Source of the DNA: a virus
IMG/VR virus record: IMGVR_UViG_3300029105_000372
Length of the DNA: 64,000 nucleotides
Strand: one strand, 5' to 3'
The notes beneath the pieces were generated by a model, which did no database searches, had not been told where the DNA came from, and worked only from the letters and a program-made list of their open reading frames with translations. Shown in pieces: positions 1 through 31,533 of this stretch. The position numbers and the translations under genes were made by a program. Position 1 is the first letter of the stretch; each line of letters begins with the position of its first letter.

Positions 1-349
1 CTCTGTGAGCACCTTTCCCTTTTCTGCAAGCGTAGGAATGGTAGATGAACTGATGCTCAAATATCGGCTCTATGTAATTGACAATCATATGTTGGATAAC
101 CCTATCGTAAAATGGCAAAGCCATGATTATACGCTCTTTGGGTTCCCAAACTTTGAATACCTTGTACTTTCCAGGAGTATATGTCAAACTTTCCAATTCC
201 CGAATGGCTTTGCCGAGATATTCCTCTCTGTTTGCTTCAAACTCCAAAACCTCCGGTCTGTACCTTTTGCACCGCCTCGCTTTTTGGTATGCGTTTAATG
301 CGTTCTTCATGGTACAGATGTTTTTCATAAGACCTGTTATTCTCTTCAT
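1..349 (-). CDS. DGR reverse transcriptase, N-terminal ~116 aa (partial; continues past window start)
   Basis: Minus-strand ORF starting at ATG 349..347 and open to position 1. Translation reads MKRITGLMKNICTMKNALNAYQKARRCKRYRPEVLEFEANREEYLGKAIRELESLTYTPGKYKVFKVWEPKERIIMALPFYDRVIQHMIVNYIEPIFEHQFIYHSYACRKGKGAH, i.e. RT motifs 1-2 typical of DGR/group-II-like RTs. It lies immediately downstream of the TR. It is absent from the ORF track because the frame is open at the window edge. Confidence 0.8.
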   Translation of the reverse strand, partial: MKRITGLMKNICTMKNALNAYQKARRCKRYRPEVLEFEANREEYLGKAIRELESLTYTPGKYKVFKVWEPKERIIMALPFYDRVIQHMIVNYIEPIFEHQFIYHSYACRKGKGAHR

Positions 350-519
350 AAATAATGCTTACGCCACACTTCCTTCGCTTTCGCTACTATTTGGCTTCGC
401 TGTTTTAAGTTCGCCCGGTTTGCACGGGTCGGGATAGCCGTCTGACTATTCAATAAATGATTATCAAATAATCCTTGTTGGCAAGCCATAGCTCCACCAA
501 TCTGACAGTTTTCAAAATA

Positions 520-646
520 GTCACAGACGCACCACACGCCAATGTTCGTGTTCACGTTCCACGGATAATTGTTGCAATTCACAGTCCGCGAACCATCGTG
601 AACCCCGTTGTTCCAGTTGCCACCGCCAATGAGCGCGTGCAAGCCA
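520..646 (-). repeat. DGR template repeat (TR), 127 nt
   Basis: 127-nt near-identical copy of 1153-1279. All 11 mismatches are T on the plus strand of the TR, i.e. A on the coding minus strand. The TR translation (spurious ORF 346..642) is Asn(AAC)-rich: NWNNGVHDGSRTVNCNNYPWNVNTNIG. Confidence 0.85.
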
Positions 647-688
647 CGGAGCGACAGTGCGAATTAACAGCTACCCCAAGATAGTTGC

Positions 689-1099
689 TTATTTTGATTT
701 CTTTTCCTTTTGTGCTTTGTTTATTAACCCTCCGATATACGCACCAAGAATACCGATCTGTGTTGCACAATATTTGTATACTCTGTCGTTCATTGCAGAA
801 TATTTGAGATCATGTGCCAATCGGATTTTCCGTACCAATCTTCCTTTCAACCTGTCGGCTGTGTAAAGATGGCTGATTGTCTTTGACCTCTCGTATGCTT
901 CTATCTCATCCATGATTCCGTCTATACATTCTCGTATATCCTTTTGGAGAGTGAATTTCTCATAATGTGGCATTTCTCTCACTTTCTTGTGGAGATATAC
1001 CGATAGGTCGTAGGCCATCTGGTGTGCTTCTGTATGGATGTAGTCCATTTTCAGAGTGGAGGGATTTTCATATTTGCTTTCGTATGCCATTACACCCAA
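689..1099 (-). CDS. avd: Avd-like accessory variability determinant (136 aa, basic, helical)
   Basis: Small basic ORF positioned between the VR-bearing target gene and the TR, exactly where avd sits in BPP-1-type DGR cassettes. No specific motif was recognised beyond size, charge and position. Confidence 0.5.
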   Translation of the reverse strand: MGVMAYESKYENPSTLKMDYIHTEAHQMAYDLSVYLHKKVREMPHYEKFTLQKDIRECIDGIMDEIEAYERSKTISHLYTADRLKGRLVRKIRLAHDLKYSAMNDRVYKYCATQIGILGAYIGGLINKAQKEKKSK

Positions 1100-1119
1100 C
1101 CTTTCAACTGCAAGGGACT

Positions 1120-1131
1120 CGGCTTTCGCCG
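1120..1131 (-). promoter_or_regulatory. GNRA hairpin (CGGC-GAAA-GCCG on coding strand) immediately 3' of VR; candidate DGR homing hairpin next to IMH
   Basis: Plus strand cggctttcgccg; the reverse complement forms a 4-bp stem with a GAAA tetraloop about 20 nt past the VR end. This matches the position of the hairpin/cruciform required for homing in the Bordetella phage DGR. Confidence 0.4.
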
Positions 1132-1143
1132 GTCCCCATCAGC

Positions 1144-2247
1144 TTACAGCGAGTCACAGACGCACCACACGCCAACGTTCGCGTACACGCTCCACGGAGA
1201 AGTGTTGCAATACACAGTCCGCGAACCATCGTGAACCCCGTAGCCCCAGTTGCCACCGCCAAGGAGCGCGTGCAAGCCAGTGTTGTTGGCCATGTAAAGC
1301 TGGCCAACTTTCTGACCGCTCATAACGTCATACCAGTTCCATGCTGATCCGGTAGGGTCGTGAATGAACTCATCAAGCCACTTCCATACGTTTCCAACAA
1401 GGTCTCGAACGTTCGTTGCAGAAACTGCGTTCTTAACATTTCCGCAAGTGGTTCTTGCTGTATTGGAAGTTGCGGACCATGCGTAAGTGTTGTTGCCGTC
1501 CGCTCCCTGCGGAGATCCGTATGCGCCCTTACAGAACTCAGCGTAGGTAGGAAGTCTCTTGCCTACTCTCATAGCTCTCTCGTTGGCGATATACCAGTTT
1601 AATCCCTCTGTTCCAGTAATCGGCACAGCACCCTTTTTGCTCTGCAAACCACTGGCACCATTGTCGGATGAAAGATATATGTCTCCCCAGAACGGTCCGA
1701 TATAAACCATTCCGGTAGGATCGCAAGTAGGCCTGTGGAGAAGAGTCCATACAGAGTTAGGAACGATCCCCTCTGTTACGTTTGTTTCCCATCCACTTCC
1801 TAATGCCGCGCCTGATGCGCTGATTGGAATACCGGAACTATTTGTTTTTCTGACTACGCCGTAATGGAAACCGCCGATCTTTCTTGATGTAACTGCTGTA
1901 TAACCGTTTGGATATGTCGTATTAAGGGAAATACGATACTGTTCTGCGGCAAAGTTCGTGGCATCTCCGCCAGTAGGATCGCAGATATAAATGCAGTAAT
2001 CTTTTCCGACTTCAAATTTTGAAGCTGTTCCGTCCAAATTGCTTGCTGTGAGTGTGGTCTTTTCTGTCTTAAAAACAGAATTTCCTACTGCAATCAGAAC
2101 TCCGGCGATTACAGTAAGTGCTCCGTTCTCCATGCGGATGAATTTCTTGTCTGATGCCACCACATCAGACATGAGAGCAAGTTTTGGAGTGGTTATCTTT
2201 GCAATATCATTCTCCATTGCCTCATCATAACCGTAGAATTTACTCAT
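1144..2247 (-). CDS. DGR target protein: putative tail fibre / receptor-binding protein with C-terminal C-type-lectin (FGE-sulfatase-like) variable domain
   Basis: 367 aa. The VR occupies the last ~42 codons. GNVWKW and C-terminal WCVCD motifs are typical of CLec-fold DGR targets (Mtd-like). It is the last gene of the tail module. Confidence 0.8.
   Translation of the reverse strand: MSKFYGYDEAMENDIAKITTPKLALMSDVVASDKKFIRMENGALTVIAGVLIAVGNSVFKTEKTTLTASNLDGTASKFEVGKDYCIYICDPTGGDATNFAAEQYRISLNTTYPNGYTAVTSRKIGGFHYGVVRKTNSSGIPISASGAALGSGWETNVTEGIVPNSVWTLLHRPTCDPTGMVYIGPFWGDIYLSSDNGASGLQSKKGAVPITGTEGLNWYIANERAMRVGKRLPTYAEFCKGAYGSPQGADGNNTYAWSATSNTARTTCGNVKNAVSATNVRDLVGNVWKWLDEFIHDPTGSAWNWYDVMSGQKVGQLYMANNTGLHALLGGGNWGYGVHDGSRTVYCNTSPWSVYANVGVWCVCDSL
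1153..1279 (-). repeat. DGR variable repeat (VR) at 3' end of target gene
   Basis: Aligns to TR 520-646 with 11 substitutions, all at TR adenines on the coding strand. It encodes the C-terminal NWGYGVHDGSRTVYCNTSPWSVYANVGVWCVCDSL of ORF 1144..2247. Confidence 0.85.
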
Positions 2248-2683
2248 TAGCCAATTCCTCCTTGATCTGATTCAGTTCTTCGGCTGTCATGCCGAGACTG
2301 TCATAAATTGTGTAAGGTGCGGTAACTGCAATTTCCGTGGCTTCGGTAGAAACCATAGCGGAAGTGGAGATAATGGTTGTTTCCAACTGGGTATCTCCAG
2401 TGTGCTCATCCGGTTCTCCCTCTTCGTGGGTAACATTCGTAATATTCACAGTCTTGTTGCCAACGATTGCCTTTGTTCCGGCCTTTGCCTCTGCACAATA
2501 GTTGATAGTTACTGTTTTCTTATCCTCTCCTACCGCAAGGATAGGGCAGTGAAGATAATTCATGTTTTCAAGATCTTCGATGGCTTCCAACAGGTCTTTT
2601 GCTGCAAATGCGCCATCATCCACCAAGGATTTACAATTTCTAATGTCCTCGGCGGTTGCAAGTCTCTTAGGGAAATCTCTCAT
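2240..2683 (-). CDS. hypothetical phage tail-associated protein (147 aa)
   Basis: Intact ORF in the late operon between the tail genes and the DGR target. No motif recognised. Confidence 0.4.
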   Translation of the reverse strand: MRDFPKRLATAEDIRNCKSLVDDGAFAAKDLLEAIEDLENMNYLHCPILAVGEDKKTVTINYCAEAKAGTKAIVGNKTVNITNVTHEEGEPDEHTGDTQLETTIISTSAMVSTEATEIAVTAPYTIYDSLGMTAEELNQIKEELANE

Positions 2684-2697
2684 TTTGTCTACCTCCG

Positions 2698-3486
2698 TTA
2701 TTTATTTACATAGGCTCCTACAAAACCATCGACAAACGCCAATCCGTTGCCGTCCATGATTCTGAAAGTCTTATGTGTCATAAGATCCGCATTGCTGATA
2801 GAAAATGTTTTTGGGGCAACTATATAGTTGTCATTCGCAATGCTTATTGTGTACTCTCCTGCCTCTGTGAGATACAAAGGCTGAGTATAATCTGTAACAG
2901 TATATTTGTTACCGGATGTTACATTTTGTACAGTTATTGCAGCAGCAGTTCCAACGGTATCGTTGAAATGTATCTTCACTGCAAGGTTTCTGATGTGGGT
3001 TTCCACATCGTTGATTTCATCCTGTAATTTTCCGGCTGCATCCGCTGACAACTGATCTTTAATCATTGAAAACCATTGATTAAACAATATTTCCTGATTG
3101 TTCTCAAACGTTGTCATTTCAGATGTGTAGTCTTTCTTTAACTGCACAACATCCGCATTTGCCGTTGCCTGCAAATTGTCGAGAAAGATATTGAATGAGT
3201 CGAGATCCAGATTTGCTCTCTTGTCAAACTCAACTTTCTGGTTCTCAAAAAACTCTGTGAATACCTCATACAAATCTGTTCCGTTTTCCAATGCTGCCAT
3301 GATTGCGTTGACGGCTGTATTGATGCGGTTGGCATCATACGCACCGAAAAACGATTCGTCATACACCGTGTACTGGGTCACATCTTTTACGGAATAGCTG
3401 CCGTCCCCATTATCAATAGGTATGAACTTCCGCAGACCGGACCATACGGCATCCTTATAGTCTGTCTTTAATCGTTCCCACGCCAC
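2698..3486 (-). CDS. hypothetical phage structural protein (262 aa)
   Basis: ORF in the tail module. No motif recognised. Confidence 0.4.
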   Translation of the reverse strand: MAWERLKTDYKDAVWSGLRKFIPIDNGDGSYSVKDVTQYTVYDESFFGAYDANRINTAVNAIMAALENGTDLYEVFTEFFENQKVEFDKRANLDLDSFNIFLDNLQATANADVVQLKKDYTSEMTTFENNQEILFNQWFSMIKDQLSADAAGKLQDEINDVETHIRNLAVKIHFNDTVGTAAAITVQNVTSGNKYTVTDYTQPLYLTEAGEYTISIANDNYIVAPKTFSISNADLMTHKTFRIMDGNGLAFVDGFVGAYVNK

Positions 3487-4104
3487 TTAGAACGCCTCCC
3501 TCCTTATGCCAAAGTTAAAGGTAAGCATCTGCCGACCTCTGTATTGGTTTAATAACTGATTGAATAAATCCAAAATCAGGCTTTCAATGCGGTTGAGTTC
3601 GTTAAAATCAAAAATCTTTCCATTCGCCGTGTATAAGGGGTTCTCCCCTATGTCCGGCTTAAATGTGTTCTCAGCTATGAGCTTAATGTTTTCTTCCAAC
3701 TGATTTATCTCGTCCGCATAAAAATACTGGTCTTTGCTCCTATCGTCTCCCAGATCATTTATGGAAAACTCCTGGTACATTGCCACGGCTATCTCTCTGA
3801 GATATGCGAGGTTGTTCTTTATCCGGTTGAAATCTTCCGTATTGAACCTATCCCCGTGATAAATTCCATCATCGTCTGTGTAACCGTACCAATTTGTTTT
3901 TGGAGTGGTCCAGGAGCCGGAGATAGAAACAACCATTGTTTCCGTTGTACTATTTCCGGCGGAATCCGTTGCCGTCAATACGGCTACATGATCCTTTTCT
4001 GAACCGTCTATGCTTGCGGAGGCTTTGTATACTGTTCCGATAGAGTGCTGAAAATTCAGTTCTTTATCGTCAAGCGTTCCTGTGACATTTGCTATATCAG
4101 CCAT
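3487..4104 (-). CDS. hypothetical phage structural protein (205 aa)
   Basis: ORF abutting neighbouring genes in the tail module. Confidence 0.4.
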   Translation of the reverse strand: MADIANVTGTLDDKELNFQHSIGTVYKASASIDGSEKDHVAVLTATDSAGNSTTETMVVSISGSWTTPKTNWYGYTDDDGIYHGDRFNTEDFNRIKNNLAYLREIAVAMYQEFSINDLGDDRSKDQYFYADEINQLEENIKLIAENTFKPDIGENPLYTANGKIFDFNELNRIESLILDLFNQLLNQYRGRQMLTFNFGIRREAF

Positions 4105-4117
4105 TCTTCATCGCCTC

Positions 4118-4324
4118 CTATCCTTTGGTGTAATTGCCAACGTATGCCAGTGGCAATTTATCAGGAATTTCCTTGTCTGATATATTGACATAGGAGCCAA
4201 CATAATTGCCGACAAACGCAACGCCTTTCAGTTCCTCAATGGAAACTGAGATTGTGTATTTCCCCTTTGCCTGCACGGGGTTTGGACTTATCGTAACGTC
4301 TCTTACCAATATGTTAGCTGCCAT
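4118..4324 (-). CDS. small hypothetical protein (68 aa)
   Basis: Short ORF packed between tail genes. Confidence 0.25.
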   Translation of the reverse strand: MAANILVRDVTISPNPVQAKGKYTISVSIEELKGVAFVGNYVGSYVNISDKEIPDKLPLAYVGNYTKG

Positions 4325-4334
4325 GCCGCACCGC

Positions 4335-5222
4335 CTAATCTGTTACCGAAACAGAAATTACATAGGTTGCTCCGACATCTGCCGGGTTCGGTGCCAATGA
4401 AACATCTGAGATAACCGGTGCTTTTGTATCGAGTGTTACTGTTCTTGTGACGGTCGTGGTTCTTCCGGCTCCGTCCTTTGCTACAACGGTAATAGTGTTT
4501 GAACCATCTTTTAGGGTTATATCCTTTGAGAAAGTTCCATCGTCATATACGGTCACTGCACTGCCATTGATTGTCAGTGTAACCGGACTTGATGTTGCAT
4601 CGTTGGTAGTTCCGGCTACCGTTACTGTGGTTTTATTCGTGACGAGTTTGTTTACAGGACTTGTAACTGATAACTCAGGCGGCACGGTATCAATCTTAAA
4701 TGAAACACTCTTCTGGGTAGCTGCATTGCCGTCATAGTCGGATGCTTTTACAACAACGGTGTGTGAGCCGTCTGAAAGTGCCGTGGACGGTTTGTAACTG
4801 CATGAGTAACCGGATGTTGTCTTTGTCTTTGTGATTCCAGATATTTCAGAACCATCAATAAGCAGTTTGATTGTGTCTGGGTTGACACCGGAATCATCAT
4901 CTGTGACTGTGAATGAAATTGTCGGCTGATTGCTCGTAAGTAACTGTGATGCTGTCGGAGAAGAGATTGTGATAACCGGTGCGGTTTTCTCTTTTACCGT
5001 AAGCCTCAGCTTGCTTCCGAGTGTGGCATCCGACTGGTTTACGGTAGTCGTGTTTCCGGCCTCATCCTTGGCGATGATCTGTACTCCGTAATAATGTCCT
5101 GACTGATTGTATGAGGACTTTGCCGGAGCGGTAAGCGTAGCCTTGTAAGTCTTTGATGCGCTGTCGTATGTGAGTGTGGTAGTCACACCATTTACGATAG
5201 CCTGTACGGATTTAATAGCCAT
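4335..5222 (-). CDS. tail protein with repeated bacterial Ig-like (Big) domains
   Basis: 295 aa, Thr/Val-rich with repeated beta-strand-type segments (TVTVAGTTNDATSSPVTLTINGSAVTVYDDGTF..., DGSNTITVVAKDGAGRTTTVTRTVTLDTKAPVI). Confidence 0.5.
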   Translation of the reverse strand: MAIKSVQAIVNGVTTTLTYDSASKTYKATLTAPAKSSYNQSGHYYGVQIIAKDEAGNTTTVNQSDATLGSKLRLTVKEKTAPVITISSPTASQLLTSNQPTISFTVTDDDSGVNPDTIKLLIDGSEISGITKTKTTSGYSCSYKPSTALSDGSHTVVVKASDYDGNAATQKSVSFKIDTVPPELSVTSPVNKLVTNKTTVTVAGTTNDATSSPVTLTINGSAVTVYDDGTFSKDITLKDGSNTITVVAKDGAGRTTTVTRTVTLDTKAPVISDVSLAPNPADVGATYVISVSVTD

Positions 5223-5246
5223 TCATTTTCCTCTTCCTTTCTGTTC

Positions 5247-7472
5247 TTATTTTTCTGATACCCTACGGGCAATTACCTTTCCAGATAAACTCTGTGAAAA
5301 ATTAACAATGTGGCGATAGATATTGACCTTTAATCCAGGGCGATATGCGTTCTCCTGATAAACAATGTCGTTCGCATCAATCTCTGGATTTCCACGGGTA
5401 TTGTATTCGTACTCAATACCGGCGTTGTAATAATCCCCAAGCCAGTCTGCCAAGTGGTTTGCCGTTTCCATATCGCTTACCAGAGGATTTTTCCATGTTA
5501 TGGTCTTTCCTCTGCTATTGAGCGTTTTTACGGCATACTGCTCAACAATGTTGTATCTGTGTCCTATAATTTCAAACTGGTACTTGCCAGTAATCAGAAA
5601 CTTAACTGTCACATAATAATCTCCGCTTTCTATGATGTTGACGTTTGATGCCGAGGAATTGAACGTAGCTCTGCATCCATAAGTCGGATCTCCGAGATAA
5701 TACGTCTGAATATCTCCCTTTACTGCCTCCGTCTCTTCACTAATAAGAGTTTCTTCCGCAGTTCCTTTCTGGTAGGAATAGCATGGCACTCTGACTGCCT
5801 TGACAAGCTCCTGTTTGATTGATTTTGGAGAAGAGGTCATATCCTGCCTTTCCATTGTAAAATCCGTTATATCGCCAAATGAGAAGTAATCAACGACTAT
5901 GCGGTTGAATGGTTCTTTTGTCTTTGTGAACTCAATCTCCATCAAATCAAAATCATCAAAATCGTGCTGCACTATCAGCCTCTTTGTAATGTCCGAATTT
6001 ACCTCATACTCATCCACCTTTTTGCCATCATTGAAAGTCCTGAATATAATTTCGTCAGGCAGTGTAGAACCAAACATTAACTGCAAACCATAGTACATAC
6101 AGGCGGTTTCCTGAGTTATGTAGATAATCGGATTTTCTTCAAATAGGCAATCCTTATTGGACTGCTGTAATGAAATATATCCGGTATACTTATCTGCCTT
6201 ACTCTGATTCTCCGGGAGATAATACATTTCTGCATTTACAGTGGTGTAGTTGTGTGCAAATGAAGCGTACTCCTGTTTTGCAGTCTCGCTCTTTATATTC
6301 CGAACATGGGAATACTCTGTCTCTCCGTTGCACGTTATGTCGTACTCCGGTGCGAATGAGGATTTAATTTGTGGTCTGCCATACCGGTTCTGTGAAAGAA
6401 CACATCTGCAGGCATTAGCGATAATCTGCAAAGCCTCTTTGTGCTTAACCCTCGGTATGGGGTTTTTTGTGGTTGACTTTTTGAGGTACGGATCAATGTA
6501 GTATTCCTCAATTCCGGCATCCTGAAAGACCAATTCTGCTGCATGGTAATATGTGATTCCTGCCGGAGCATAGCAGCCTTTGTAATATTCCTCGTCCATG
6601 TTTCTGAAAAGATCCTGACACCTTATCGTTGCCGAGTAATCATCACTTTCCCATGCGCTACACTGTAGTTTTGCGCCTCTTATCCATTCGATGGTGTCTG
6701 AGTTCGGCAGTTGATAACCATACCAGACATACATCTCCTGCCCTGTCTCCAAGAAGTTGATTGCTGAGTTTGGGTTGTCTACATTGAAATACTGATCGTA
6801 ATTCTGTAACTTAACCATGAAATCTATCTGTGGAACATCCTCGCAAATTGGGGATATGTAGCTATCTAATTTAGAATCCATAATATCGTCATTGTAATAA
6901 ACAAGACCGTAGCCTAACTGAATTGAATAAATCCTCAGTCTGGAATATGGATTTTTCATCTTGTAGAAGATGAATTTTATATATGTGGTATTCTCTAACA
7001 CCTGTTCTGTACTGAACTCTGACTGATCGTTGTCAGCAATCTCTATTCTCTGTCCGCTACTCGTGAGTATGTCGAACCGGGTAGGATAAACCTCTCCAAA
7101 ATTGATAGTCAGTCCTTTAATGTCTGTTGCCACAACATTCAGTTCGATAAGTAGCTCATATCCACTTTTCGGAATCAGAGGCTTGCTTATCAAACCGGTG
7201 TCGTAGTAGTTACCGGATGTATTCTCTCTTGGAAGAAAATACATGGATCCGTCAACCTTTGTGAAATCATGTTCGAGCGTGGCATATACAGTGTCCTCTT
7301 TTCGCTGACCGAATAAGCCGGTCTGCTTCGAGTAATAGGCAAAATTATTTCCCATGACAGTTGCGTTGGCCTGTGCCTCCTGATTTACCAGACCGAATGA
7401 AATCATCATGTATGACCGCTCTCTCAGAGAGCTTTTCATGCTTGCCTTGTATTCATTTGATACTTTCTGCAT
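5247..7472 (-). CDS. phage tail protein (741 aa; minor tail / tail-tip structural protein)
   Basis: Large ORF directly downstream of the tape-measure gene, as is usual for siphovirus tail-tip proteins. No catalytic motif recognised. Confidence 0.5.
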   Translation of the reverse strand: MQKVSNEYKASMKSSLRERSYMMISFGLVNQEAQANATVMGNNFAYYSKQTGLFGQRKEDTVYATLEHDFTKVDGSMYFLPRENTSGNYYDTGLISKPLIPKSGYELLIELNVVATDIKGLTINFGEVYPTRFDILTSSGQRIEIADNDQSEFSTEQVLENTTYIKFIFYKMKNPYSRLRIYSIQLGYGLVYYNDDIMDSKLDSYISPICEDVPQIDFMVKLQNYDQYFNVDNPNSAINFLETGQEMYVWYGYQLPNSDTIEWIRGAKLQCSAWESDDYSATIRCQDLFRNMDEEYYKGCYAPAGITYYHAAELVFQDAGIEEYYIDPYLKKSTTKNPIPRVKHKEALQIIANACRCVLSQNRYGRPQIKSSFAPEYDITCNGETEYSHVRNIKSETAKQEYASFAHNYTTVNAEMYYLPENQSKADKYTGYISLQQSNKDCLFEENPIIYITQETACMYYGLQLMFGSTLPDEIIFRTFNDGKKVDEYEVNSDITKRLIVQHDFDDFDLMEIEFTKTKEPFNRIVVDYFSFGDITDFTMERQDMTSSPKSIKQELVKAVRVPCYSYQKGTAEETLISEETEAVKGDIQTYYLGDPTYGCRATFNSSASNVNIIESGDYYVTVKFLITGKYQFEIIGHRYNIVEQYAVKTLNSRGKTITWKNPLVSDMETANHLADWLGDYYNAGIEYEYNTRGNPEIDANDIVYQENAYRPGLKVNIYRHIVNFSQSLSGKVIARRVSEK

Positions 7473-7478
7473 ACACCA

Positions 7479-7850
7479 TCACTCTCCACAATCAATAAGG
7501 TTTACTTTGCAACTCTGATAGGTAATTGGATTTCCGTCTGTATCAATCCAATATGGTTCTGCCGTCCTATCTCCGGGGTACATCTTTATTGTTATTTTTT
7601 TCATAGTGACCGGATCTGGGAAAGTGACATATACGAAAAACGCACTCAGCACCGTAAGCATCCGGCTCCACTCAGCTGCCGTCAGCCACGGCCATTCCAG
7701 AGTGTCGAGTTTGTACTGATCTCGCCCAACTCTCTGTCCTACGACCGTACCGTTGGCATTTCTTCCGGCATCCACCATTGTAGATACAGTTGGCTTTGCC
7801 CCACGTTTAGGAGGGGGGAAGTCACAACCATTTACTGATATATAAGCCAT
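7479..7850 (-). CDS. hypothetical tail protein (123 aa)
   Basis: ORF between the tape-measure protein and the 741-aa tail protein. Confidence 0.35.
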   Translation of the reverse strand: MAYISVNGCDFPPPKRGAKPTVSTMVDAGRNANGTVVGQRVGRDQYKLDTLEWPWLTAAEWSRMLTVLSAFFVYVTFPDPVTMKKITIKMYPGDRTAEPYWIDTDGNPITYQSCKVNLIDCGE

Positions 7851-7864
7851 TCCATATCCCTCCT

Positions 7865-10800
7865 TTACGCTCCTTGGAAGCTGTAACCGTTGGCATTGCG
7901 CTGTGTGGTTACTGCGTCCGTAACTGTCTTTCCACCGATTTCAACAATCGTCTGTTCTTTCTTATCAGCCTGTGTCTTGGTATTCTTTGAAATCTCACTC
8001 ACAGCGGTTGTTATTCCTAGATCATCCAGAGCCTCTTTGATAGCTTCTTTCAGACCGCCGCCGGAATTAAGCGTTGCCTGCACGGTTCCGTTTGTAGATA
8101 CCTCCCTTGTCACACGCTGCACGATTGCTTCATTTGTGAAATCACTTCCATAATTGTTGCTGTATTCTTTCAATGCACTGTCATTGATTTTCAGACGTGT
8201 TCCGAGGTTCACGTCCATATCAGCGAATGAATCTACCCAGGAAGTGACAATTCCTTTTGTTTTCTCTCCCTCTTTCTCTACGCCGATGTTATATCCCTCT
8301 ACGGAATATGCACCTAATCGTTTGAATACTCTGGACGGAGAGTTAATATCCAGTTTGTCTTTGAACCATGAGATAATACTGCTGCCCCACGATTCAATGT
8401 TGTTCTTACAGGTAGAGTACAGATTTCCTATACCGTTCTTAAAACCATCTAACACATTTTTTGCAATGTCATACCACTTGTCATAAGAACAGGTATTTGT
8501 GAACCACGTTTTTACATTAGAAGCCCATGTTGTAATGTTGCTCTTACAAGTCGTATAACTGTTTCCGATTTTCGTTTTGAAGCCGGAAATAATATTCTCT
8601 GCATAGGTACTCCACTTAGAACTATTGATGCCTCCAAAACCACTATCAGAGAACCACGTTTTGAGGTTTGAAGCCCATGTTGTGATATTGCTTTTCGTAT
8701 CTGTGTACGACAGTCCTATTTTGTTCCTGAAACCAGTTATGATATTTCCTGCATAAGTGGTCCATGTGGCATTGTTGATATTTCCGAATGAAGATCCAGA
8801 AAACCAATCTTTCAGGCTATTCGCCCAAGTAGTAATGTTGTTCTTTGTGGTGGTATAGGTGCTTCCAACCTTTTCCCGGAAGCCGGAAATGATATTGTTT
8901 GCGTAGGTCTGCCAAGTATTGCTATTGATGTTTCCAAAGCCGCTGCTCGTATACCATTCCTTAACTTTGCTCGCCCAGGTTGTGATGTTATCTTTTGTGG
9001 TGGTGTATGTGTTACCCACCTTTGTTTTGAAACCAGTGATAATATCATTTGCGTAGGTGGTCCATGTACCGTTATTCACTCCGCCGAATGAAGAACTATT
9101 AAACCATTCCTTTGCCTTTGAGGCCCATGTGGTAATGTTGTCCTTGGTCTGTGTATAGGCATTTCCCACTTTTGTCTTGAAACCGGAGATAATGTCATTT
9201 GCATATCCGGTCCATGTTTCCATGTTGATCCCACCAAATGATGAATTGTTGAACCACTCTTTAGCCTTAGTAGCCCAAGTCGTGATGCTGTCTTTCGTGG
9301 TGGTATAAGCATTGCCTATCTTGTCCTTAAAGCCGGTTATGATGTTCTGACCGTGGGTTTCCCAAGTCTCTTTGCAAATCTTTCCAAAGCTCGTACCCGA
9401 GAACCAGTCATTGACCTTTCCGGCCCACTCCGTAACTTTTGCTTGGCAGTCTGAGAATTTCTTTCCGATGCCTCCATTGAAAGCAGTGACAAGATTACTT
9501 CCAAGTGTGCTGAATACGGTTGAATCGGATGAACCACCTATGCCGAATATTCCTTTGACAACATCTGTCACATTTCCGAAACAACTCAACGCTGTCTGCA
9601 ATGGTGCTGGCAAAAGGGATTTAGATATTCCACCCAGCAAGCCACTGACTATTTTCTCTCCGACAGTATTTATTTCTCCATCATCAGATCCAATTCCGAA
9701 CTTCTTTGATATTCCCTCAACAACGCTTGTTTTCAGTTCATTCCAAATGGCGGTCCATGATACCCATTTGAACAAATTCTTGAATGTCCACTTGGCTGCA
9801 AATACCTTAAAGACTGTTTTGAGGATTGTGTCCCAGTCAATCTCGGACATTGCCGTTCCTACGCCCTTTAGAAGTTCGTACCAATCTACCTCGTCTATTA
9901 AAGTGTTAATCAGTGTGCATACACCAGATATAAGGGAATTGATTGTGCCTCCGGCTTCTTTCCAGTCGATAGTCTTAACTGCCTTGTTTATCGCACTCGC
10001 AAAGTCACTTCCGATTTTCTTGAAATCTATCTTCGCAAGGAATTTTCCAAGACCGCTGAAAAGTGTCTTGATGCTGTTGCCAAGCGTTGTGCCTACAAGA
10101 TTCCAGTGGATCTCCGTAATTGCGGTATTTATATTTGTTCCAAGTCCCTCACAGAAAGTATCGAAACCATCTTTGATGGTATTCCAATCGAGTTTTTTCA
10201 GTGCTGTGTTGACACCGTTTGCAAAGTTCGTAGCAATATCTTTCCATGGGAAAGTCTTTGAGAAATTCAGTACGGCAGTAAATACACCATTTACAAAACC
10301 AGCGAATGTTTCTCCAATGCCAACATAATCAATTCCGACTATTGCATTGCCAAGCAAATTGCCGATTGCGGTTCCGAGTGAAGCCCAATCCAATCCGGTA
10401 ACGAATGTCTTTGCAAATAGAATCGCTGAGTTTATTGCATTGGAAATTGCTGTTCCAATTTTCTTCCAGAGATCTTCTGTCTGCAGGGCAGCGTTGATTG
10501 CATCTACGATACCCTGTGCAAGTCCCTTTGCGGTTTTATTTATCAGAGTCCAGTCAAGAGTATCTAATGCACCAATGATAAGATCTGCTATTGCCGTTCC
10601 GAGACTGCTCCAATGGAAGTTTTCTACAAATGAATCAACGAACTCAAATGCAGAGTTAATAGCTTGCGCTATTGTCACACCTATTGATGTGAACAATCCA
10701 GGAGTTTCAAGGAAACCATTCAGGAATGTCGCAATGCACTTCGCAATCTTTCTCAGAGATGCTTTGATGCCGTCCCACTGAATGTTATCGAGGGCTTCTT

Positions 10801-12550
10801 TCAGTTTCTCCCCGAACATTCTTCCTACATCGTAGAAATCAGCTTCATCCCAAGCATCCTTAATCATCTGTGCAAGATTTTTGTACTTATCCGCAATCTC
10901 GTCTGTTTCATAACCGCTTCCATCGGCTCCGCTGTTGCTTCCACTGCCGCTTTTATCATCACTTAGGATGTTAAGCTCATCTATGCCGGTGGTAAGGTTC
11001 TTTGCCGCCTTTGCAGCACCATTTAAGGAATCTGTATAATCTTTATTCTGTTTTATTGCCTTGGTATAGAACTTCTTACCTGTGAGTGCTGAGAAGAACT
11101 GTGCCAATGCGTTTGTTGCTGCAATGAGCTTCTGAATCAGATAATCCAGAATCGGAGTAACTACATTCAGTATTGGCTCAAATGCAGTTGTCAGTGATGC
11201 TCCAAGCTGTCGCAAATCGTTGTAGAGCAGATTTACGTTTTTGTGAAACTCTGTTCCGGCTCTTTTTGAATAAATAACAAGGTTATCGAATCCTGTTTTT
11301 ACGAGTTCAAATAGGTGTGTAAACATTGAACGTAATAACATGAACGTTCCAAGTCGGATGATTGAGTCGAGTTTCTTTGCAAATGCACCAGATTGTTTTT
11401 CTGAAAATCCAAGGCTTTCTCTCACTCTCTTTTTGAGTTCCTTGAATTTGTTTATAATTGCAGCAATCCCAGAACGGATTTTGTTCACTACCGTTTTCAC
11501 GGCAGAAATGATTTTTTGTGTCTCGTTCTTTACAGCATTTGCCACTTGCCTTACCGCATTGATGATTGCAGTAAGGATTGTCAGGATAATACCAATAATC
11601 GGTATCGCCGCCTGAACGGCTTCAAGACCTACTGCCATAGATTGGAACCCAGCGTTTGCCGCCATGCCCCCGGTTTCAATGGCCGGAAGAATTGATGCAA
11701 TTCCACTTAATATAGAAGAAAAGGTTCCAAGTCCACATTTCTGTGCTGCATCCCCTATGGACTTAATGGACTTTGCCACATCCTCCATATTCTTAGGAGA
11801 CTGTGAAACCGTTTCCTTGAACTGCTTAAACTGTTCCTGTGCCTGTCTGAGACCATTCACAGCTTCCTCATACTGACCGGTATCAAACCGTATCTTTCCA
11901 CTCTCCATACCGCTGACAGTGGCTTTGTACTTATTGATCTGGTCTATGAGTTCCTGAATACGTCTATTAGCCGGATTTGTGTTTGCCTGATTGAGACTTT
12001 CGTTTAAGTTTGTCTGTCCGGCTGCTGCACTTTGTCCGGCAGTTCCGAGGTTGCTTTCCTCTTGTGCCAACTGACTTGCCGCTGATGCGGCACCGTTCAT
12101 TGCTGCCTGTGCCTCTTCTGATGCAGTCGCAACGCTTTCTGTGGCTGCCGCTGCTTGCTGACCGTTCTCCAAAGGCTGTACACGTCTCTGTGCCCCCTCA
12201 GAATCAATTCTGATGCTGACGCGATTATTCGATCCGAGGTTTCCAAGTGCTGTGCTGACTTCCTTTACAGTAGCCGCAACCTCTTTTAATTTCGCCGTAT
12301 CAACTCCTGACAGAGACTTAATGGATGATGCAATGCTTCTCATACCACTTCCGGCATTTTTAAGATCATCTCCAACGCCGGAGAAACCACGCATTACATC
12401 AAGAATCTGTTTTAACTTTTCTGTATCTAATCCCTCAGTGATTTTCTTCATTGAGGTAAGAGCTTTTGTTACTTTATCAATACCACCGTCTGCCTTATCA
12501 GTGGTGGCTTCTATTTCCAATAAAATGCTATCTACTCTGTTATCAGGCAT
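7865..12550 (-). CDS. tail tape-measure protein (1561 aa)
   Basis: Very long ORF in the tail module. It has a coiled-coil/Ala-Gln-rich N-terminal region, hydrophobic segments and C-terminal tandem ~49-aa repeats. Confidence 0.85.
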   Translation of the reverse strand: MPDNRVDSILLEIEATTDKADGGIDKVTKALTSMKKITEGLDTEKLKQILDVMRGFSGVGDDLKNAGSGMRSIASSIKSLSGVDTAKLKEVAATVKEVSTALGNLGSNNRVSIRIDSEGAQRRVQPLENGQQAAAATESVATASEEAQAAMNGAASAASQLAQEESNLGTAGQSAAAGQTNLNESLNQANTNPANRRIQELIDQINKYKATVSGMESGKIRFDTGQYEEAVNGLRQAQEQFKQFKETVSQSPKNMEDVAKSIKSIGDAAQKCGLGTFSSILSGIASILPAIETGGMAANAGFQSMAVGLEAVQAAIPIIGIILTILTAIINAVRQVANAVKNETQKIISAVKTVVNKIRSGIAAIINKFKELKKRVRESLGFSEKQSGAFAKKLDSIIRLGTFMLLRSMFTHLFELVKTGFDNLVIYSKRAGTEFHKNVNLLYNDLRQLGASLTTAFEPILNVVTPILDYLIQKLIAATNALAQFFSALTGKKFYTKAIKQNKDYTDSLNGAAKAAKNLTTGIDELNILSDDKSGSGSNSGADGSGYETDEIADKYKNLAQMIKDAWDEADFYDVGRMFGEKLKEALDNIQWDGIKASLRKIAKCIATFLNGFLETPGLFTSIGVTIAQAINSAFEFVDSFVENFHWSSLGTAIADLIIGALDTLDWTLINKTAKGLAQGIVDAINAALQTEDLWKKIGTAISNAINSAILFAKTFVTGLDWASLGTAIGNLLGNAIVGIDYVGIGETFAGFVNGVFTAVLNFSKTFPWKDIATNFANGVNTALKKLDWNTIKDGFDTFCEGLGTNINTAITEIHWNLVGTTLGNSIKTLFSGLGKFLAKIDFKKIGSDFASAINKAVKTIDWKEAGGTINSLISGVCTLINTLIDEVDWYELLKGVGTAMSEIDWDTILKTVFKVFAAKWTFKNLFKWVSWTAIWNELKTSVVEGISKKFGIGSDDGEINTVGEKIVSGLLGGISKSLLPAPLQTALSCFGNVTDVVKGIFGIGGSSDSTVFSTLGSNLVTAFNGGIGKKFSDCQAKVTEWAGKVNDWFSGTSFGKICKETWETHGQNIITGFKDKIGNAYTTTKDSITTWATKAKEWFNNSSFGGINMETWTGYANDIISGFKTKVGNAYTQTKDNITTWASKAKEWFNSSSFGGVNNGTWTTYANDIITGFKTKVGNTYTTTKDNITTWASKVKEWYTSSGFGNINSNTWQTYANNIISGFREKVGSTYTTTKNNITTWANSLKDWFSGSSFGNINNATWTTYAGNIITGFRNKIGLSYTDTKSNITTWASNLKTWFSDSGFGGINSSKWSTYAENIISGFKTKIGNSYTTCKSNITTWASNVKTWFTNTCSYDKWYDIAKNVLDGFKNGIGNLYSTCKNNIESWGSSIISWFKDKLDINSPSRVFKRLGAYSVEGYNIGVEKEGEKTKGIVTSWVDSFADMDVNLGTRLKINDSALKEYSNNYGSDFTNEAIVQRVTREVSTNGTVQATLNSGGGLKEAIKEALDDLGITTAVSEISKNTKTQADKKEQTIVEIGGKTVTDAVTTQRNANGYSFQGA
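8350..9600 (-). repeat. about 8 tandem ~147-bp (49-aa) repeats inside the tape-measure gene
   Basis: Protein repeats of the form NITTWASKAKEWF.SSSFGG.N..TW..YANDIISGFKTKVGN.YT.TKD recur about eight times. Coordinates were estimated from residue positions. Confidence 0.55.
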
Positions 12551-18671: not shown

Positions 18672-20288
18672 CTATTCTTCTACCATTGCAGTCTTACTTG
18701 GCTGCTTAGATTCCTCTGTCTTATCTTTTTCCGTGTTGTTCTCCCCACCGTTCCCCTCTTCATCCTTGTATGCGTTAGGGTTCGGTTGCTGTGTCTTTTC
18801 CTCCTTGGAGGCAAGTTTCTTCTGTATGCCATCAATAATAGGCTTACTATCAACCCATGCCTGTTGTGGATCTGTGAACAGTCCAACAGTGTTAAACGAT
18901 GTAAGACCGTCTACTCCGGCATTAAGCAATGCCACAAGGGAATTGGTCTTAGACACCAAATCATAGGTTTTTGTACGGCAGAAACGGATTTCAACATCTG
19001 CCGTCTCTATATCTTTCAGACCGTCATACGGTCTCTGATCTGTCTTAATGATTTCGATTGCCAAATCAATGAGCTGCATTTCCGGCTCAGTGAATAACTG
19101 TTCAACCGTCTTAGCGGAAATCTCCAAACACTGCCATCCATTGGATAACTGCATCGCACCGGTGGTTGAACCGCCACTTGCCTCCTGCCATGATGGTGTA
19201 GAGGTGATCTGCTCCAACTGAGAATTGAGATGATCCACAAGTTTCTGAACCTCACTCTCATTCAATGTCTGATTGAGGTAAGTGATCTTTGCTTCCTTGC
19301 CGTCCCCGGTACTCTTTGTCATAATGACTCCATCGCCGTCTACGAGGTTTTTCTTGCCCTCTTCGTTTACCTGGCAGTTGTGCATCCAGAGTAAACTCTG
19401 AACGTGTTGCAGAATATCATTGATACGGTCAGAATCCACAAGATTCATTGCATCCATCAGTGGGATAACCTTTTCAAAAATACCCATGCGGTCATTCAGA
19501 TAAAATTCAACGACCGGTATTCTTCGGAGTGGGTTTGGTGCGATATTCTCTTTCAGATGATAGTCTGTCGTGTTCAACTCATGCTCAATGGTATAGCAGA
19601 AATTCTTTGAGTATGCCGTAAGAGTAATTGTTCCATCATCATGTACGGAATAGGTGCATCCTAGCACCGGTTCTCTATATGCGTCATTTGAGTACACCAC
19701 AAAGGTTGTAAGTGGACTTGGAACCAATAGTTCAAATGGAGAATATCTGCTCTTATTTCTGTTCGGCAGCATCATCTGGTAGCCGACACCACAGATAAAT
19801 AAGTTTCTTCCAAGGGCAATATCTTTTGCCGCTTTGCTCTGCTCCTGCATCATTTTATTGAGCATGGCGATCTTCAAATCGTCAATATTCTCTCCATCGT
19901 CCTCATCCTTTTTTCTCAAAAATCCGAATAAGGCTTTCTTCTGTTTCTTTGTCGGTTCTATCTTTGCTCTCTGTACGAAAGTGATCGGGTTGGAAAAACA
20001 ATATCCCAGATGCACGTCCACAATCTTTGAAGCATTGTTTTCTACGACTGTGGCATTGAGATCCGGTCTGATTTTCTTTTCACGGTTAAGAATTGGCTGA
20101 TTGCCTTTCTCGTACTCAAAAAGAAAAACTTCCTGTGCCACATTCTCCTGGTGTTCCATAAACGCCTTAGATACAACCGATATGATATTGTCTTTCGTAA
20201 TTTTCCTCTCATCAGTCATTAACATTCGTCTACCGAGAGTTGGACGGTTGCTTGCGTACATGAAGTTTCCCCTTTCTGAATAAAACAA
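18672..20288 (-). CDS. portal protein (538 aa)
   Basis: Size, position upstream of the Mu-F-like gene, and acidic C-terminal tail. Confidence 0.7.
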   Translation of the reverse strand: MFYSERGNFMYASNRPTLGRRMLMTDERKITKDNIISVVSKAFMEHQENVAQEVFLFEYEKGNQPILNREKKIRPDLNATVVENNASKIVDVHLGYCFSNPITFVQRAKIEPTKKQKKALFGFLRKKDEDDGENIDDLKIAMLNKMMQEQSKAAKDIALGRNLFICGVGYQMMLPNRNKSRYSPFELLVPSPLTTFVVYSNDAYREPVLGCTYSVHDDGTITLTAYSKNFCYTIEHELNTTDYHLKENIAPNPLRRIPVVEFYLNDRMGIFEKVIPLMDAMNLVDSDRINDILQHVQSLLWMHNCQVNEEGKKNLVDGDGVIMTKSTGDGKEAKITYLNQTLNESEVQKLVDHLNSQLEQITSTPSWQEASGGSTTGAMQLSNGWQCLEISAKTVEQLFTEPEMQLIDLAIEIIKTDQRPYDGLKDIETADVEIRFCRTKTYDLVSKTNSLVALLNAGVDGLTSFNTVGLFTDPQQAWVDSKPIIDGIQKKLASKEEKTQQPNPNAYKDEEGNGGENNTEKDKTEESKQPSKTAMVEE

Positions 20289-21563: not shown

Positions 21564-21910
21564 TTCTTTTTCATCCCTCTGATAGTATGCTTTTTACGGT
21601 TTCCTACAAATCTGCCGCCGCCCTTTTGGTTGCCATAGATAAATGCCGCCATATTCCCACCAGACAGTTTCTGCGTGACCGGTTTGAAATCTGTCTGTGT
21701 GTTTTCCTCCATAGGGCGTAATGATGGCGTTTCGGGTTTATACTGAGGTCTCCATACCATGGCAATTTTATTGTCTTTGGGATCCACAAATCCAATACCA
21801 TTTTCAAAGATAGTAAGATTAAGTCCATGCCGGATGCAGGCCTCTTCGATCTCTTTCTGTACCTCAACTGCTTTTTTCTGTGCTTCTGTCATACCATTTT
21901 CTCCTTTCAT
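21560..21910 (-). CDS. hypothetical protein with basic C-terminus (116 aa)
   Basis: ORF immediately downstream of the kinase gene. Confidence 0.3.
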   Translation of the reverse strand: MKGENGMTEAQKKAVEVQKEIEEACIRHGLNLTIFENGIGFVDPKDNKIAMVWRPQYKPETPSLRPMEENTQTDFKPVTQKLSGGNMAAFIYGNQKGGGRFVGNRKKHTIRGMKKK

Positions 21911-23637
21911 CGTACAGTTCTCCCAAGTCTATAAATATTTTCATCATTGATGATCGTAAATGCTGTGGAATCTTTGATTAAACAGCTATCTGGCGATACG
22001 GCTTCGCACTCAAAATCCTTAAATGCCTGTTTCTGGTACGAATATATTCTGATATTCCCATCAATCGGTATTGAAATATTGGAGTTATAAAAACATACAT
22101 TGCCAAGCCCACATTGATATTTAATGCGATCCTCGCTATACGCTACTCCATGTTCATTGCACACAAAGGTAAAGAACTGTCCGGCTCCGTTCTCCAACAC
22201 TATAAGCCATCCTCCGGTTATTTTATCTCTGTGTATTCCATAATTATTCACGGTATCGGTATATGGTATCTCAATATTTTTCCCATCCAGACTCACAATG
22301 AGGTTTTCTGCAAATCTACTTACAACGCACGAATGTCCCTCAGATACCGCAAAGTAACTCTCATACCCACATTTTGTAATCGTCCGTATTCCGTTGCCTG
22401 ATTTCGTGATCTGAATTGAGGTTAATGTATTGGCGGGACTTATGAAGTATACTGAATCTCCTGCTGCATAAATCGGGCTCTTGTATTTCTTATCAAACAC
22501 ATATTCTCTATCCGTGGTAAACCAGAACGCTCTATCATCCGCTTTTATTGCAATATTCTCTGTTCCAACCTCTGCAAAATGATATTTAATTCCGCTTTCG
22601 TATGCGAATTTATTCCCATTCTTAACTTCCACTACTTCTCCAGCATTATTGATATAACACTGCTCATTTAGAACAATTTTTACATCGTTTCCTTTGAGCA
22701 TCGTGATAAGTGTAAGTCCTCCTGTTACCCCTTGTGATACCGGCTTAGTAAGAACATTTGCGTTATTATCACATAGCGGACAACGAGCATATTTGCCATA
22801 ATAAAACTCCTGGTGTGCATCGCAGAATTTAAGGTGCTTTGCCATGTGTTTTAATTCATCCCCCATAGATCGGCTCTTATTCTCAAAAATCTTTTTCAGA
22901 GAATCAACCAGATAAGGAGATAAGTTTTTCCACGGTTTAATCGTTCTTGGTATTTTTACTTTTGGATTGTCTATTACGCATATTCCTCGTTTCATACGTT
23001 CTACAATATCCATATCTGGTGTCACAGTCCCGCCATGCGGATGAATCCTTGTAAGGGTTTTCCAAATCAAAATTGCCTCTGCGTATGTGTCTGTTTCCTC
23101 TGAAAAATCATTTCCTTTCATCAATGGATCTTTGAATAAGTCCATGCAAACTTCGCATTTTTCATCTTCCACGCTCCAACTATCACAATCTATAAAGTAC
23201 ACATTTCCAGTTTTGTCAAAGAGGATGTTCTGATCGTTCAGATCCCCAATATACACTCCGGCGGAATGTATATCTCTCACGGTGTCCTGTATCTTTACGA
23301 GTATTTCCAAAATATCTTTCGTGGTTATCCCATTCGCTTTCAGATATTTTTTACTTGTGAGAACTCTTACTTCCTCTCCTACGGCTTTTGGCATAATGTA
23401 ACCAATAAACTTATTGTTATTGTCATACACTGCCGTAATCGGTTTAATAGCCTCCTTTGGCAGCGGTTTGTCAATGAGCATGGCAACTTTCTTTTCCTTG
23501 GCTGCAATATCAACACAGGGTTTGTAAATTTTCAGAATATCGTTGCCAAACTCATAGATATATCCCTCGCCTCCCTCCGTTATGGGGGTAAGCTGTCTTA
23601 TCTTTTCTTTTCCTATCCTCGTTAGTGCCATTTTCAT
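21907..23637 (-). CDS. eukaryotic-like Ser/Thr protein kinase with C-terminal Zn-ribbon / beta-rich extension (576 aa)
   Basis: Gly-loop GGEGYIYEF, lysine in ILKIYKP, catalytic-loop-like IGDLNDQNILFD and DFG-like IDCDSW. C-terminal CPLC..C motifs. Confidence 0.65.
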   Translation of the reverse strand: MKMALTRIGKEKIRQLTPITEGGEGYIYEFGNDILKIYKPCVDIAAKEKKVAMLIDKPLPKEAIKPITAVYDNNNKFIGYIMPKAVGEEVRVLTSKKYLKANGITTKDILEILVKIQDTVRDIHSAGVYIGDLNDQNILFDKTGNVYFIDCDSWSVEDEKCEVCMDLFKDPLMKGNDFSEETDTYAEAILIWKTLTRIHPHGGTVTPDMDIVERMKRGICVIDNPKVKIPRTIKPWKNLSPYLVDSLKKIFENKSRSMGDELKHMAKHLKFCDAHQEFYYGKYARCPLCDNNANVLTKPVSQGVTGGLTLITMLKGNDVKIVLNEQCYINNAGEVVEVKNGNKFAYESGIKYHFAEVGTENIAIKADDRAFWFTTDREYVFDKKYKSPIYAAGDSVYFISPANTLTSIQITKSGNGIRTITKCGYESYFAVSEGHSCVVSRFAENLIVSLDGKNIEIPYTDTVNNYGIHRDKITGGWLIVLENGAGQFFTFVCNEHGVAYSEDRIKYQCGLGNVCFYNSNISIPIDGNIRIYSYQKQAFKDFECEAVSPDSCLIKDSTAFTIINDENIYRLGRTVR

Positions 23638-31221: not shown

Positions 31222-31533
31222 TTAGCGATTCACTTCATCTTTCAGTACTTTACCGGCTTTGAACTTAGGTGCTTTGCAAGCCGGAATGGAAATCTCTTTT
31301 CCGTTCTGAGGGTTCTTACCAACTCTGGCAGCACGCTCAGTCACTTCAAATGTTCCAAAACCGACCAACTGCACTTTTCCGCCTTTTCCAAGTTCTCCGC
31401 CTACAATCTCAACAAATGCGTTGAGTGCTTTTTCAGCATCACTTTTGGAAAGTCCGGCATCGTCAGCCATTGCCTGTACTAATTCAGCTTTATTCATTGC
31501 TCTGTACCTCCGTTGTTGGTGAAAGATCTCCAA
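31222..31533 (-). CDS. hup: HU-family DNA-binding protein (103 aa)
   Basis: MNKAELVQAMA...GFGTFEVTERAARVGKNPQNGKEISIPA, a near-consensus HU/IHF signature. Confidence 0.85.
   Translation of the reverse strand: MEIFHQQRRYRAMNKAELVQAMADDAGLSKSDAEKALNAFVEIVGGELGKGGKVQLVGFGTFEVTERAARVGKNPQNGKEISIPACKAPKFKAGKVLKDEVNR

Follow-up and report, generated by a model that had tools for sequence, protein, structure and literature searches.

The first 2,247 nucleotides of a 64,000-nt stretch of viral DNA (the window; IMG/VR virus record IMGVR_UViG_3300029105_000372) carry part of a diversity-generating retroelement (DGR). All genes in positions 1-12,500 lie on the minus strand, and in that direction the order is a tail-protein gene that ends in a variable repeat (VR), the accessory gene avd, a template repeat (TR), a 190-nt spacer, and the beginning of a gene for a reverse transcriptase (RT) (Table 1). 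The initial annotation of the window likened the order target(VR)-avd-TR-RT to that of the prototype DGR of phage BPP-1 (mtd-avd-TR-brt), and the open reading frames (ORFs) with their family matches confirm the identity of each gene. The same annotation called the element complete. The word fits the element as it stands in its genome, but the window has only the first third of RT, without the catalytic motifs.

Table 1. Positions of the genes, repeats and cis elements of the retroelement within the window
Feature	Position	Strand	Description
DGR target gene	1144..2247	(-)	367 aa, Mtd-like tail/receptor-binding protein (role predicted), VR at C-terminus
VR	1152..1279	(-)	128 nt, codes for target residues about 324-366
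GC-rich hairpin/cruciform	1114..1136	(-)	15 nt downstream of VR; GGGACCGGC-GAAA-GCCG(A)GTCCC
avd	689..1090	(-)	133 aa, ATG at 1090
TR-bracketing RNA duplex, 5' strand	668..678	(-)	UGGGGUAGCUG, upstream of TR, pairs with 430-440
TR	519..646	(-)	128 nt, 27 adenines, all at codon positions 1-2
Spacer, TR to RT	329..518	(-)	190 nt, non-coding 3' part of the DGR RNA
Stem-loop after TR	478..500	(-)	9 bp, one flipped-out G, UAUG tetraloop; candidate Avd-binding element
Priming motif AGUCAGA (predicted)	441..447	(-)	AGUCA pairs with TR 3' end UGACU (519-523)
TR-bracketing RNA duplex, 3' strand	430..440	(-)	CGGCUAUCCCG, in spacer
Short stem-loop and A-rich tract	400..428	(-)	CCCG(U)-GCAA-(AC)CGGG, adjoins duplex
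DGR RT, 5' third	1..328	(-)	codons 1-109 of 335, cut by window edge

A repeat search and direct comparison of the copies define a direct repeat of 128 nt on the minus strand, at 519-646 and 1152-1279, with a spacing of 633 nt and 91% identity. It is the sole long repeat within the first 6 kb. The initial annotation had made it 127 nt long; it was right that the copies differ only at adenines. On the coding (minus) strand there are 11 mismatches, and all 11 fall on adenines of TR, an outcome with a chance of 5.4e-9 (hypergeometric) given 27 adenines in 128 nt. The copy at 1152-1279 is the VR because it lies at the 3' end of the 367-aa ORF, and the copy at 519-646 is the TR because it is non-coding in its context. 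A 98-aa ORF at 346-642 (minus strand) runs through TR and spacer, and I reject it as a gene, since it results only from the copying of the target's C-terminal reading frame by TR. In one public contig (L003, 10449-10745) this ORF is annotated as a gene, and most likely it is none.

Translated in that frame, TR reads GLHALIGGGNWNNGVHDGSRTVNCNNYPWNVNTNIGVWCVCD and VR reads ...LLGGGNWGYGVHDGSRTVYCNTSPWSVYANVGVWCVCD, the peptides quoted in the initial annotation. All 27 adenines of TR are found at codon position 1 or 2, none at position 3, and nine codons are AAY, so that substitution of adenines cannot produce a stop codon. The protein variants that mutagenesis of TR adenines can reach in this way number about 1e16. 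A search of the 64-kb window with N at each TR adenine returned just the two copies already described, where none would be expected by chance, and no second VR or remote target was found by this pattern. The DGR therefore has a single target in the window. The final 24 nt of VR and TR are identical, poor in A and not composed of G and C only; past them the homology stops completely.

The target protein is, judged by sequence and by predicted fold, a homologue of BPP-1 Mtd over its full length. Among Pfam families it matches mtd_2nd at 1e-28 (above cut-off) and FGE-sulfatase at 2.7e-7 (residues 215-363), and it matches PHROG 11262, 'tail protein', at 4e-67. With phmmer, its residues 34-367 align to 65-378 of BPP-1 Mtd (1yu3) at an E value of 1e-18, and in that alignment the position of VR coincides with the variable C-terminus of Mtd. 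An AlphaFold model made with 30 homologues (pLDDT 84, pTM 0.85) gave the same answer: the top five PDB matches by Foldseek are Mtd variants (TM 0.67-0.70, E 1e-20 to 1e-22), after which come formylglycine-generating enzymes (FGE) and the DGR variable proteins TaqVP and TvpA. The C-terminal C-type-lectin (CLec)/FGE-like fold predicted from the window is thus borne out, at the level of family matches and of the model, by Pfam, Mtd and Foldseek alike, and the motifs VGNVWKW and WCVCD quoted along with it are both found in the 367-aa ORF. The annotation had also placed the target as the terminal tail gene. It is indeed the final gene of a tail module that runs from tape measure through Dit-like and tail-associated genes to the target. 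By homology to BPP-1 and by gene position, the protein would sit at the tail tip and bind the receptor.

An exact-protein look-up of the target gave no record, as expected of a hypervariable protein. Grouped at 90% identity, the target falls into clusters of 3,535 and 9,648 distinct sequences; Avd, by contrast, is exactly conserved. Public data contain more than 1,100 homologues of the target, and the same cassette occurs in siphovirus and myovirus tail modules.

The identical 133-aa Avd is recorded in 4,317 blocks of public assemblies. The version starting at a TTG is without a record by exact-protein look-up, and the true start of avd is therefore the ATG at 1090. Avd matches Pfam bAvd at 2.8e-9, NCBIfam DivGenRetAVD at 5.9e-11 and the PHROG 'Avd protein of DGR' at 3.9e-11, and a profile of 8 Avd homologues compared with PDB found BPP-1 Avd only (4dwl at 2.4e-4, 8ub7_B at 1.6e-3).

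The RT gene starts with an ATG at 328 (there is an alternative ATG at 310) and is, as described at the outset, truncated by the window edge. The fragment of 109 codons matches the NCBIfam N-terminus of group II RTs at 6.7e-10. The window's 327 nt of RT, its spacer, its TR and its avd are identical to those of ten public contigs found through Avd (below), one of which, L001, has an RT of 335 aa with YMDD and VGNLTSQ, matching Pfam RVT_1 at 3.6e-21 and BPP-1 bRT (8ub7_A) at 1.4e-49. The initial annotation had asked for the full RT as a check. Recovered elsewhere from the same prophage, the full RT passes it, with the RT motifs and YMDD in place. Both [ILV]GxxxSQ and YxDD thus belong to the element by way of L001, and the window itself contains no catalytic motif. 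The RT keeps equivalents of bRT K29, F66, R74 and I76 (here K21, F58, R66 and I68, all within the window fragment), of the IGxxxSQ motif and of the catalytic aspartates.

How does the repeat pair behave in other copies of the prophage? With the exact Avd protein as the anchor, and so independently of VR, ten long contigs were retrieved. All ten share the module of tape measure, tail genes, 367-aa target, avd, TR and 335-aa RT, followed past RT by four small ORFs, an endolysin and then unrelated host genes. Their TR is the same as the window's (one contig has a single change), and each VR is different. Over these ten copies and the window, 135 of the 138 differences between TR and VR fall on adenines (hypergeometric P about 1e-99), and the rate of change is 45% of adenine cells versus 0.27% of non-adenine cells. 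The initial annotation had named VR differences in other copies as a test of adenine-specific mutagenesis, and with this result the test is passed.

A further 41 loci, for 51 in all, came from scanning genome, viral and metagenome collections for the pattern. Among the VRs of this set 43 of 44 are unique, and among the TRs 45 of 48 are identical; 26 of the 27 adenines vary, and the commonest replacement is G. Relatives whose RTs are 58-95% identical have the same cassette, with differences between TR and VR on adenines only (8/8, 15/15, 20/20 and so on). The element is a real, naturally active, canonical DGR.

The copies include some oddities. At the TR position, L012 (947-1074; the same contig as L056) and L042 (minus strand, 1843-1970) have copies with 9 and 12 adenine-site substitutions, flanked on both sides by TR flanks; the substitutions are unlike the VR of their own contig. 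Most likely the assembler mis-threaded the repeat among population variants; a less likely reading is that homing occasionally enters TR itself. L014 (1312-1439) and L024 (minus strand, 26-153) join the upstream flank of VR to an unmutated TR and the downstream flank of TR, a junction that deletes the 3' flank of VR and avd, and the protein P0025 is a 519-aa call of an Mtd-RT fusion. Either repeat collapse in assembly or a real deletion by VR/TR recombination may be the cause. Upstream of the RT start at 2501 in L091, whose RT is 84% identical, unrelated sequence replaces the 5' half of TR and the upstream strand of the TR-bracketing duplex, leaving about 72 nt of TR/VR homology, possibly the mark of a decaying element.

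The tail module has peculiarities of its own. From about 1,300 to 2,600 of the window, the 5' two-thirds of the target (outside VR) and the preceding gene come as two alleles, about 10% divergent, in otherwise near-identical prophages (L002, L003 and L008-L010, positions 8,500-10,000). This suggests recombination (mosaicism) at the tail tip, on top of DGR mutagenesis. In L053, an Mtd-like tail gene at 4001-5113 (protein P0055, 102 blocks on record) is 58% identical to the target and has no avd, TR or RT downstream, with a degenerate GAAA-loop hairpin past its stop codon. This lineage seems either to have lost its DGR or never to have had one. A 49-nt direct repeat (71% identical) at 2,700-2,748 and 4,180-4,228 of the window ends two tail-module ORFs, both copies encoding similar ...VGxYVN C-termini. 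Judging from these sequences, it may be a C-terminal motif shared by adjacent tail proteins.

The region also has cis elements that the initial annotation does not mention, the first of them a hairpin downstream of VR. According to Guo et al. 2011 (PMC3240598), the homing element needed in BPP-1 and conserved in phage DGRs has a GC-rich stem of 7-10 bp capped by a GRNA loop and lies at a distance of 4-34 bp from VR. The hairpin at 1114-1136 has these properties, since folding of the DNA gives a 9-bp stem with a GAAA loop. Relatives L054 and L055, whose targets are 50-60% identical, keep the GAAA-loop hairpin on GC-rich stems that differ. No run of T follows the hairpin, so it is no obvious terminator. 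Promoter and terminator scans found nothing above shuffled expectation, and a search of positions 1-2500 against Rfam gave nothing at E <= 1.

The RNA elements were judged from a MAFFT alignment of the TR region in 18 elements whose RTs are 58-100% identical, lineages across which the spacer has conserved blocks. TR is bracketed by a duplex of 11 pairs. Its inner helix is 97% paired in the 18 relatives, three of its pairs have compensatory changes (C-G/U-A/A-U, G-C/A-U and C-G/U-A), and 89% of duplex cells are paired versus 26-47% in controls with slid partners. L055 stands one base out of register in this part of the alignment. An additional 13th pair (columns 69/366) was rejected, unpaired in 16 of 18 cells. 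DGR RNAs have been described with an Avd-binding stem-loop and with a 'cPRT Stop' made of a duplex, a stem-loop and adenosines (10.1101/2023.10.23.563531). The duplex formed by 668-678 and 430-440 corresponds to that of the 'cPRT Stop'.

Because of bulges the register changes from lineage to lineage, which makes column-wise covariation unreliable, and the other two stem-loops were for this reason judged by folding each sequence. About 17 nt past TR, a stem-loop of 7-9 bp with a loop of UACG, UAUG or UCCG is found in 18 of 18 relatives, with differing stem sequences. The one at 478-500 fits the published description and is a candidate for the stem-loop that binds Avd. As a test of membership among DGRs, then, the RNA yields both the duplex, with its three compensatory pairs, and the stem-loop. 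The element at 400-428 is present in most relatives as a GNRA-type loop (GUAA, GUGA or GCAA) on a covarying short stem, followed by A-rich sequence. It resembles, with weaker support than the other elements, the duplex-adjacent stem-loop and adenosines of the same description.

The spacer's AGUCAGA and the end of TR, GUGACU, are invariant in 18 of 18 relatives, and invariance means that no evidence of covariation comes from them. In BPP-1, priming pairs spacer C55-A56-G57 with TR G117-U118-G119 (PMC6182149). By analogy of motif, the predicted priming adenosine here is 443 and the predicted first templated base is the G of TR at 524. The TR adenine at 521, which lies 3' of the predicted start of the cDNA, never varies in 43 VRs.

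With high confidence, I take the region to be the 5' two-thirds of a BPP-1-type DGR in a large temperate siphovirus of human-gut Lachnospiraceae, which diversifies an Mtd-like tail protein. What was observed is the anatomy of the element, its homologies, its adenine-specific diversity in the population, and the conservation and covariation of its cis elements. On that foundation I propose the following mechanism, borrowing the priming site, retrohoming and the receptor-binding role from BPP-1 by homology. An RNA consisting of the 3' end of avd, TR and the 190-nt spacer would be bound by a complex of RT and Avd. By folding back, the spacer would bring its invariant GUCA*G motif into pairing with the 3' end of TR, and RT would prime cDNA in cis from adenosine 443, beginning at G 524 of TR. 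RT would then copy TR faithfully except opposite adenines, where any base might be inserted. The mutagenised cDNA would then take the place of VR in the 3' end of the target gene. Two features would guide it there, the 3' end of VR, which is homologous and free of A, and the hairpin with its GAAA loop, which lies 15 nt past VR. From 27 adenines, up to about 1e16 stop-free proteins could result. All changes would fall on the ligand-binding face of the C-type-lectin domain of the Mtd-like protein, and the proposed consequence is altered receptor specificity of the phage.

Several points count against this proposal. The scores of Avd lie under the curated cut-offs (37.9 versus 40 bits for Pfam, 42.6 versus 80 for NCBIfam). 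The catalytic two-thirds of RT lie beyond the window, and their integrity in this genome is judged from identical copies. The scans of whole DNA collections demanded exact matches at non-adenine positions, so that only the 10 Avd-anchored loci give an unbiased rate of change at adenines versus other bases. Activity is read from diversity between samples rather than from variation within one population or sample. The hairpin alone gives z = -2.0 versus shuffles, and the whole DGR RNA folds no more stably than shuffled sequences do (z = -0.73), so I claim only those local elements that have comparative support. The priming site is assigned by analogy of motif only. Finally, an initiation-of-mutagenic-homing (IMH/IMH*) pair in the style of BPP-1, that is, a GC-only 14-mer, (GC)14, with a 21-bp segment differing from TR, is absent from the ends of TR and VR, where the homology ends abruptly past an A-free stretch of 21 nt. 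That pair is a feature of BPP-1 and not universal among DGRs, and the directionality of homing here may come instead from the flank found only at VR and from the hairpin.

An alternative view is that two near-identical 128-nt copies 633 nt apart are an ordinary partial gene duplication, and that point mutation, recombination and diversifying selection, rather than any reverse transcription, produced their differences. The few contigs with VR/TR chimeras could reflect such recombination. But a duplication would have to account for the extreme adenine specificity of the changes, for one copy that is invariant while the other is hypervariable, for a DGR-type RT and Avd next door, and for the presence of a conserved homing hairpin and RNA elements. 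The adenine bias of 135/138, together with an invariant TR and a hypervariable VR, effectively refutes this idea, and I give it a negligible chance. It is also very unlikely that the DGR is real but a dead relic in this genome, with RT disrupted past the window, or homing ended, and VR the record of past mutagenesis. The window stops at RT codon 109 and so hides whatever lies beyond its edge. Decayed relatives do exist: L091 has lost the 5' half of TR and a strand of the duplex, and L053 keeps an Mtd-like gene with no avd, TR or RT. Yet the 335-aa RT is intact in 10 of 10 contigs with the identical Avd, the window shares with those contigs every one of its 327 nt of RT and its spacer, and TR, hairpin and priming motif are all intact. 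The window's VR, moreover, has no duplicate in the set of 43 variants, which speaks for recent turnover in the lineage.

A different question is what the diversified protein binds. The DGR might work as I propose and yet serve adhesion rather than the switching of tropism, if the target binds something other than the host receptor: mucus, glycans, another surface, or the envelope of a second host. Placement of the target at the tail tip is predicted from gene position; targets of gut-phage DGRs include head-decoration and Ig-like adhesion proteins (10.64898/2026.01.26.701711; PMC11792537), and the adjacent gene at 4335-5222 has Ig-like domains. I regard this as unlikely, in view of the full-length homology to Mtd, the receptor-binding protein of BPP-1, which extends to the second domain specific to Mtd. 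The gene stands at the distal end of the module of tape measure, Dit-like and tail-associated genes, and PHROG labels the family a tail protein.

The BPP-1 element is the natural standard of comparison for the DGR described here. Beyond gene order, the two share a target homologous from end to end, in which VR occupies the corresponding place in the C-terminal CLec domain; an RT matched to bRT in K29, F66, R74, I76, IGxxxSQ and YMDD; a homologous Avd; a similar length of TR (134 nt in BPP-1, 128 nt here); a GC-rich GAAA-loop hairpin downstream of VR; the priming logic of GUGAC in TR and GUCAG in the spacer; and, as in DGR RNAs, a tetraloop stem-loop after TR and a duplex bracketing TR. They differ in that the targets are only about 26-28% identical, and that the similarity of Avd is detectable only by profiles. 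The spacer is 140 nt with A56 in BPP-1, as opposed to 190 nt here with the predicted priming A at spacer position 76, and the hairpin here has a bulged stem 15 nt from VR. The host, too, differs, a Gram-positive gut anaerobe infected by a large temperate siphovirus.

Another comparison is with the Faecalibacterium prophages such as Lagaffe, which are likewise temperate phages of gut Bacillota. Their DGR targets are reported to resemble BPP-1 Mtd, and activity has been inferred from A-specific variation among cognate genomes (PMC11792537). They belong to another host family, their RT is distant (38% identical to the one here), and they have two VRs or targets, in contrast to the single VR in 64 kb here. 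The 'GuFi' prophages of gut Firmicutes are highly prevalent, with DGRs that are reported to be enriched and active, often target tail-fibre genes and have links to more than one host; the nonsynonymous changes fall within the final ~100 bp (10.64898/2026.01.26.701711). I liken the prophage to these families by description. Among cultured or deposited phages, the closest RT is that of Bacillus phage BalMu-1, a Mu-like phage of an alkaliphilic Bacillus, compared here by RT and genome position. Its RT is only 43.8% identical over 96% of the RT (tblastn), and its DGR lies near the right end of the genome, as here. Searched at the DNA level, the collection of deposited phages yielded no relative of the cassette; the matches were one of 91 nt, TR-like, to a Vibrio phage and one fragment of 3.8 kb that falls elsewhere in the window.

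The metagenomic contigs with the element come from human gut samples. The sole species-representative genome that contains it is Diplocloster hominis CSJ-3 (Lachnospiraceae), a candidate for a cultured lysogen. The right end of the prophage lies ~120 nt past the endolysin gene, at about 14,530-14,550 of L001, which is roughly 3.4 kb beyond the left edge of the window. In ten loci (L001-L010) the host DNA past this end represents at least seven chromosomal contexts, which means that integration takes place at many sites, or else in many hosts. The junctions share a loosely conserved motif, ...CTACTGCTATG / nnnGCTCAGGG. A Mu-like transposable phage was considered as the source of so many contexts; the ORFs scanned include no transposase, and there is the loose motif that the junctions have in common.

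On the minus strand the large terminase (33,296-34,948) lies about 13 kb from the SPP1-like portal (18,672-20,288), an unusual layout for a packaging module. Between them lie genes for a kinase-like protein (21,907-23,637), a DUF2828/VWA protein (26,025-27,476) and an SPFH/Band_7 protein (31,490-32,467).

A prophage with exactly conserved Avd and TR is thus found in thousands of assemblies and at least seven chromosomal contexts, with a receptor-binding tip that differs in almost every copy. Does the DGR drive the exceptional spread of its prophage? I consider that doubtful. If it were true, the phage would be a natural Gram-positive model of DGR-mediated expansion of host range, and phages of Pseudomonadota and Bacillota would be shown to have in common all the RNA elements of BPP-1, the GUCA*G cis-priming motif among them.

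There is no new biology in kind here, as DGRs on Mtd-like tail proteins have been known since BPP-1 and are common and active in prophages of gut Firmicutes. The value lies in a clean, highly prevalent and evidently active example, with one VR, exactly conserved TR and Avd, and thousands of natural VR variants. Apart from IMH/IMH*, the cis elements of the BPP-1 mechanism are recognisable, and the duplex that brackets TR is supported by covariation. The element would offer a practical Gram-positive system in which to study DGR-driven switching of tropism and the generality of the cis-priming ribonucleoprotein architecture.

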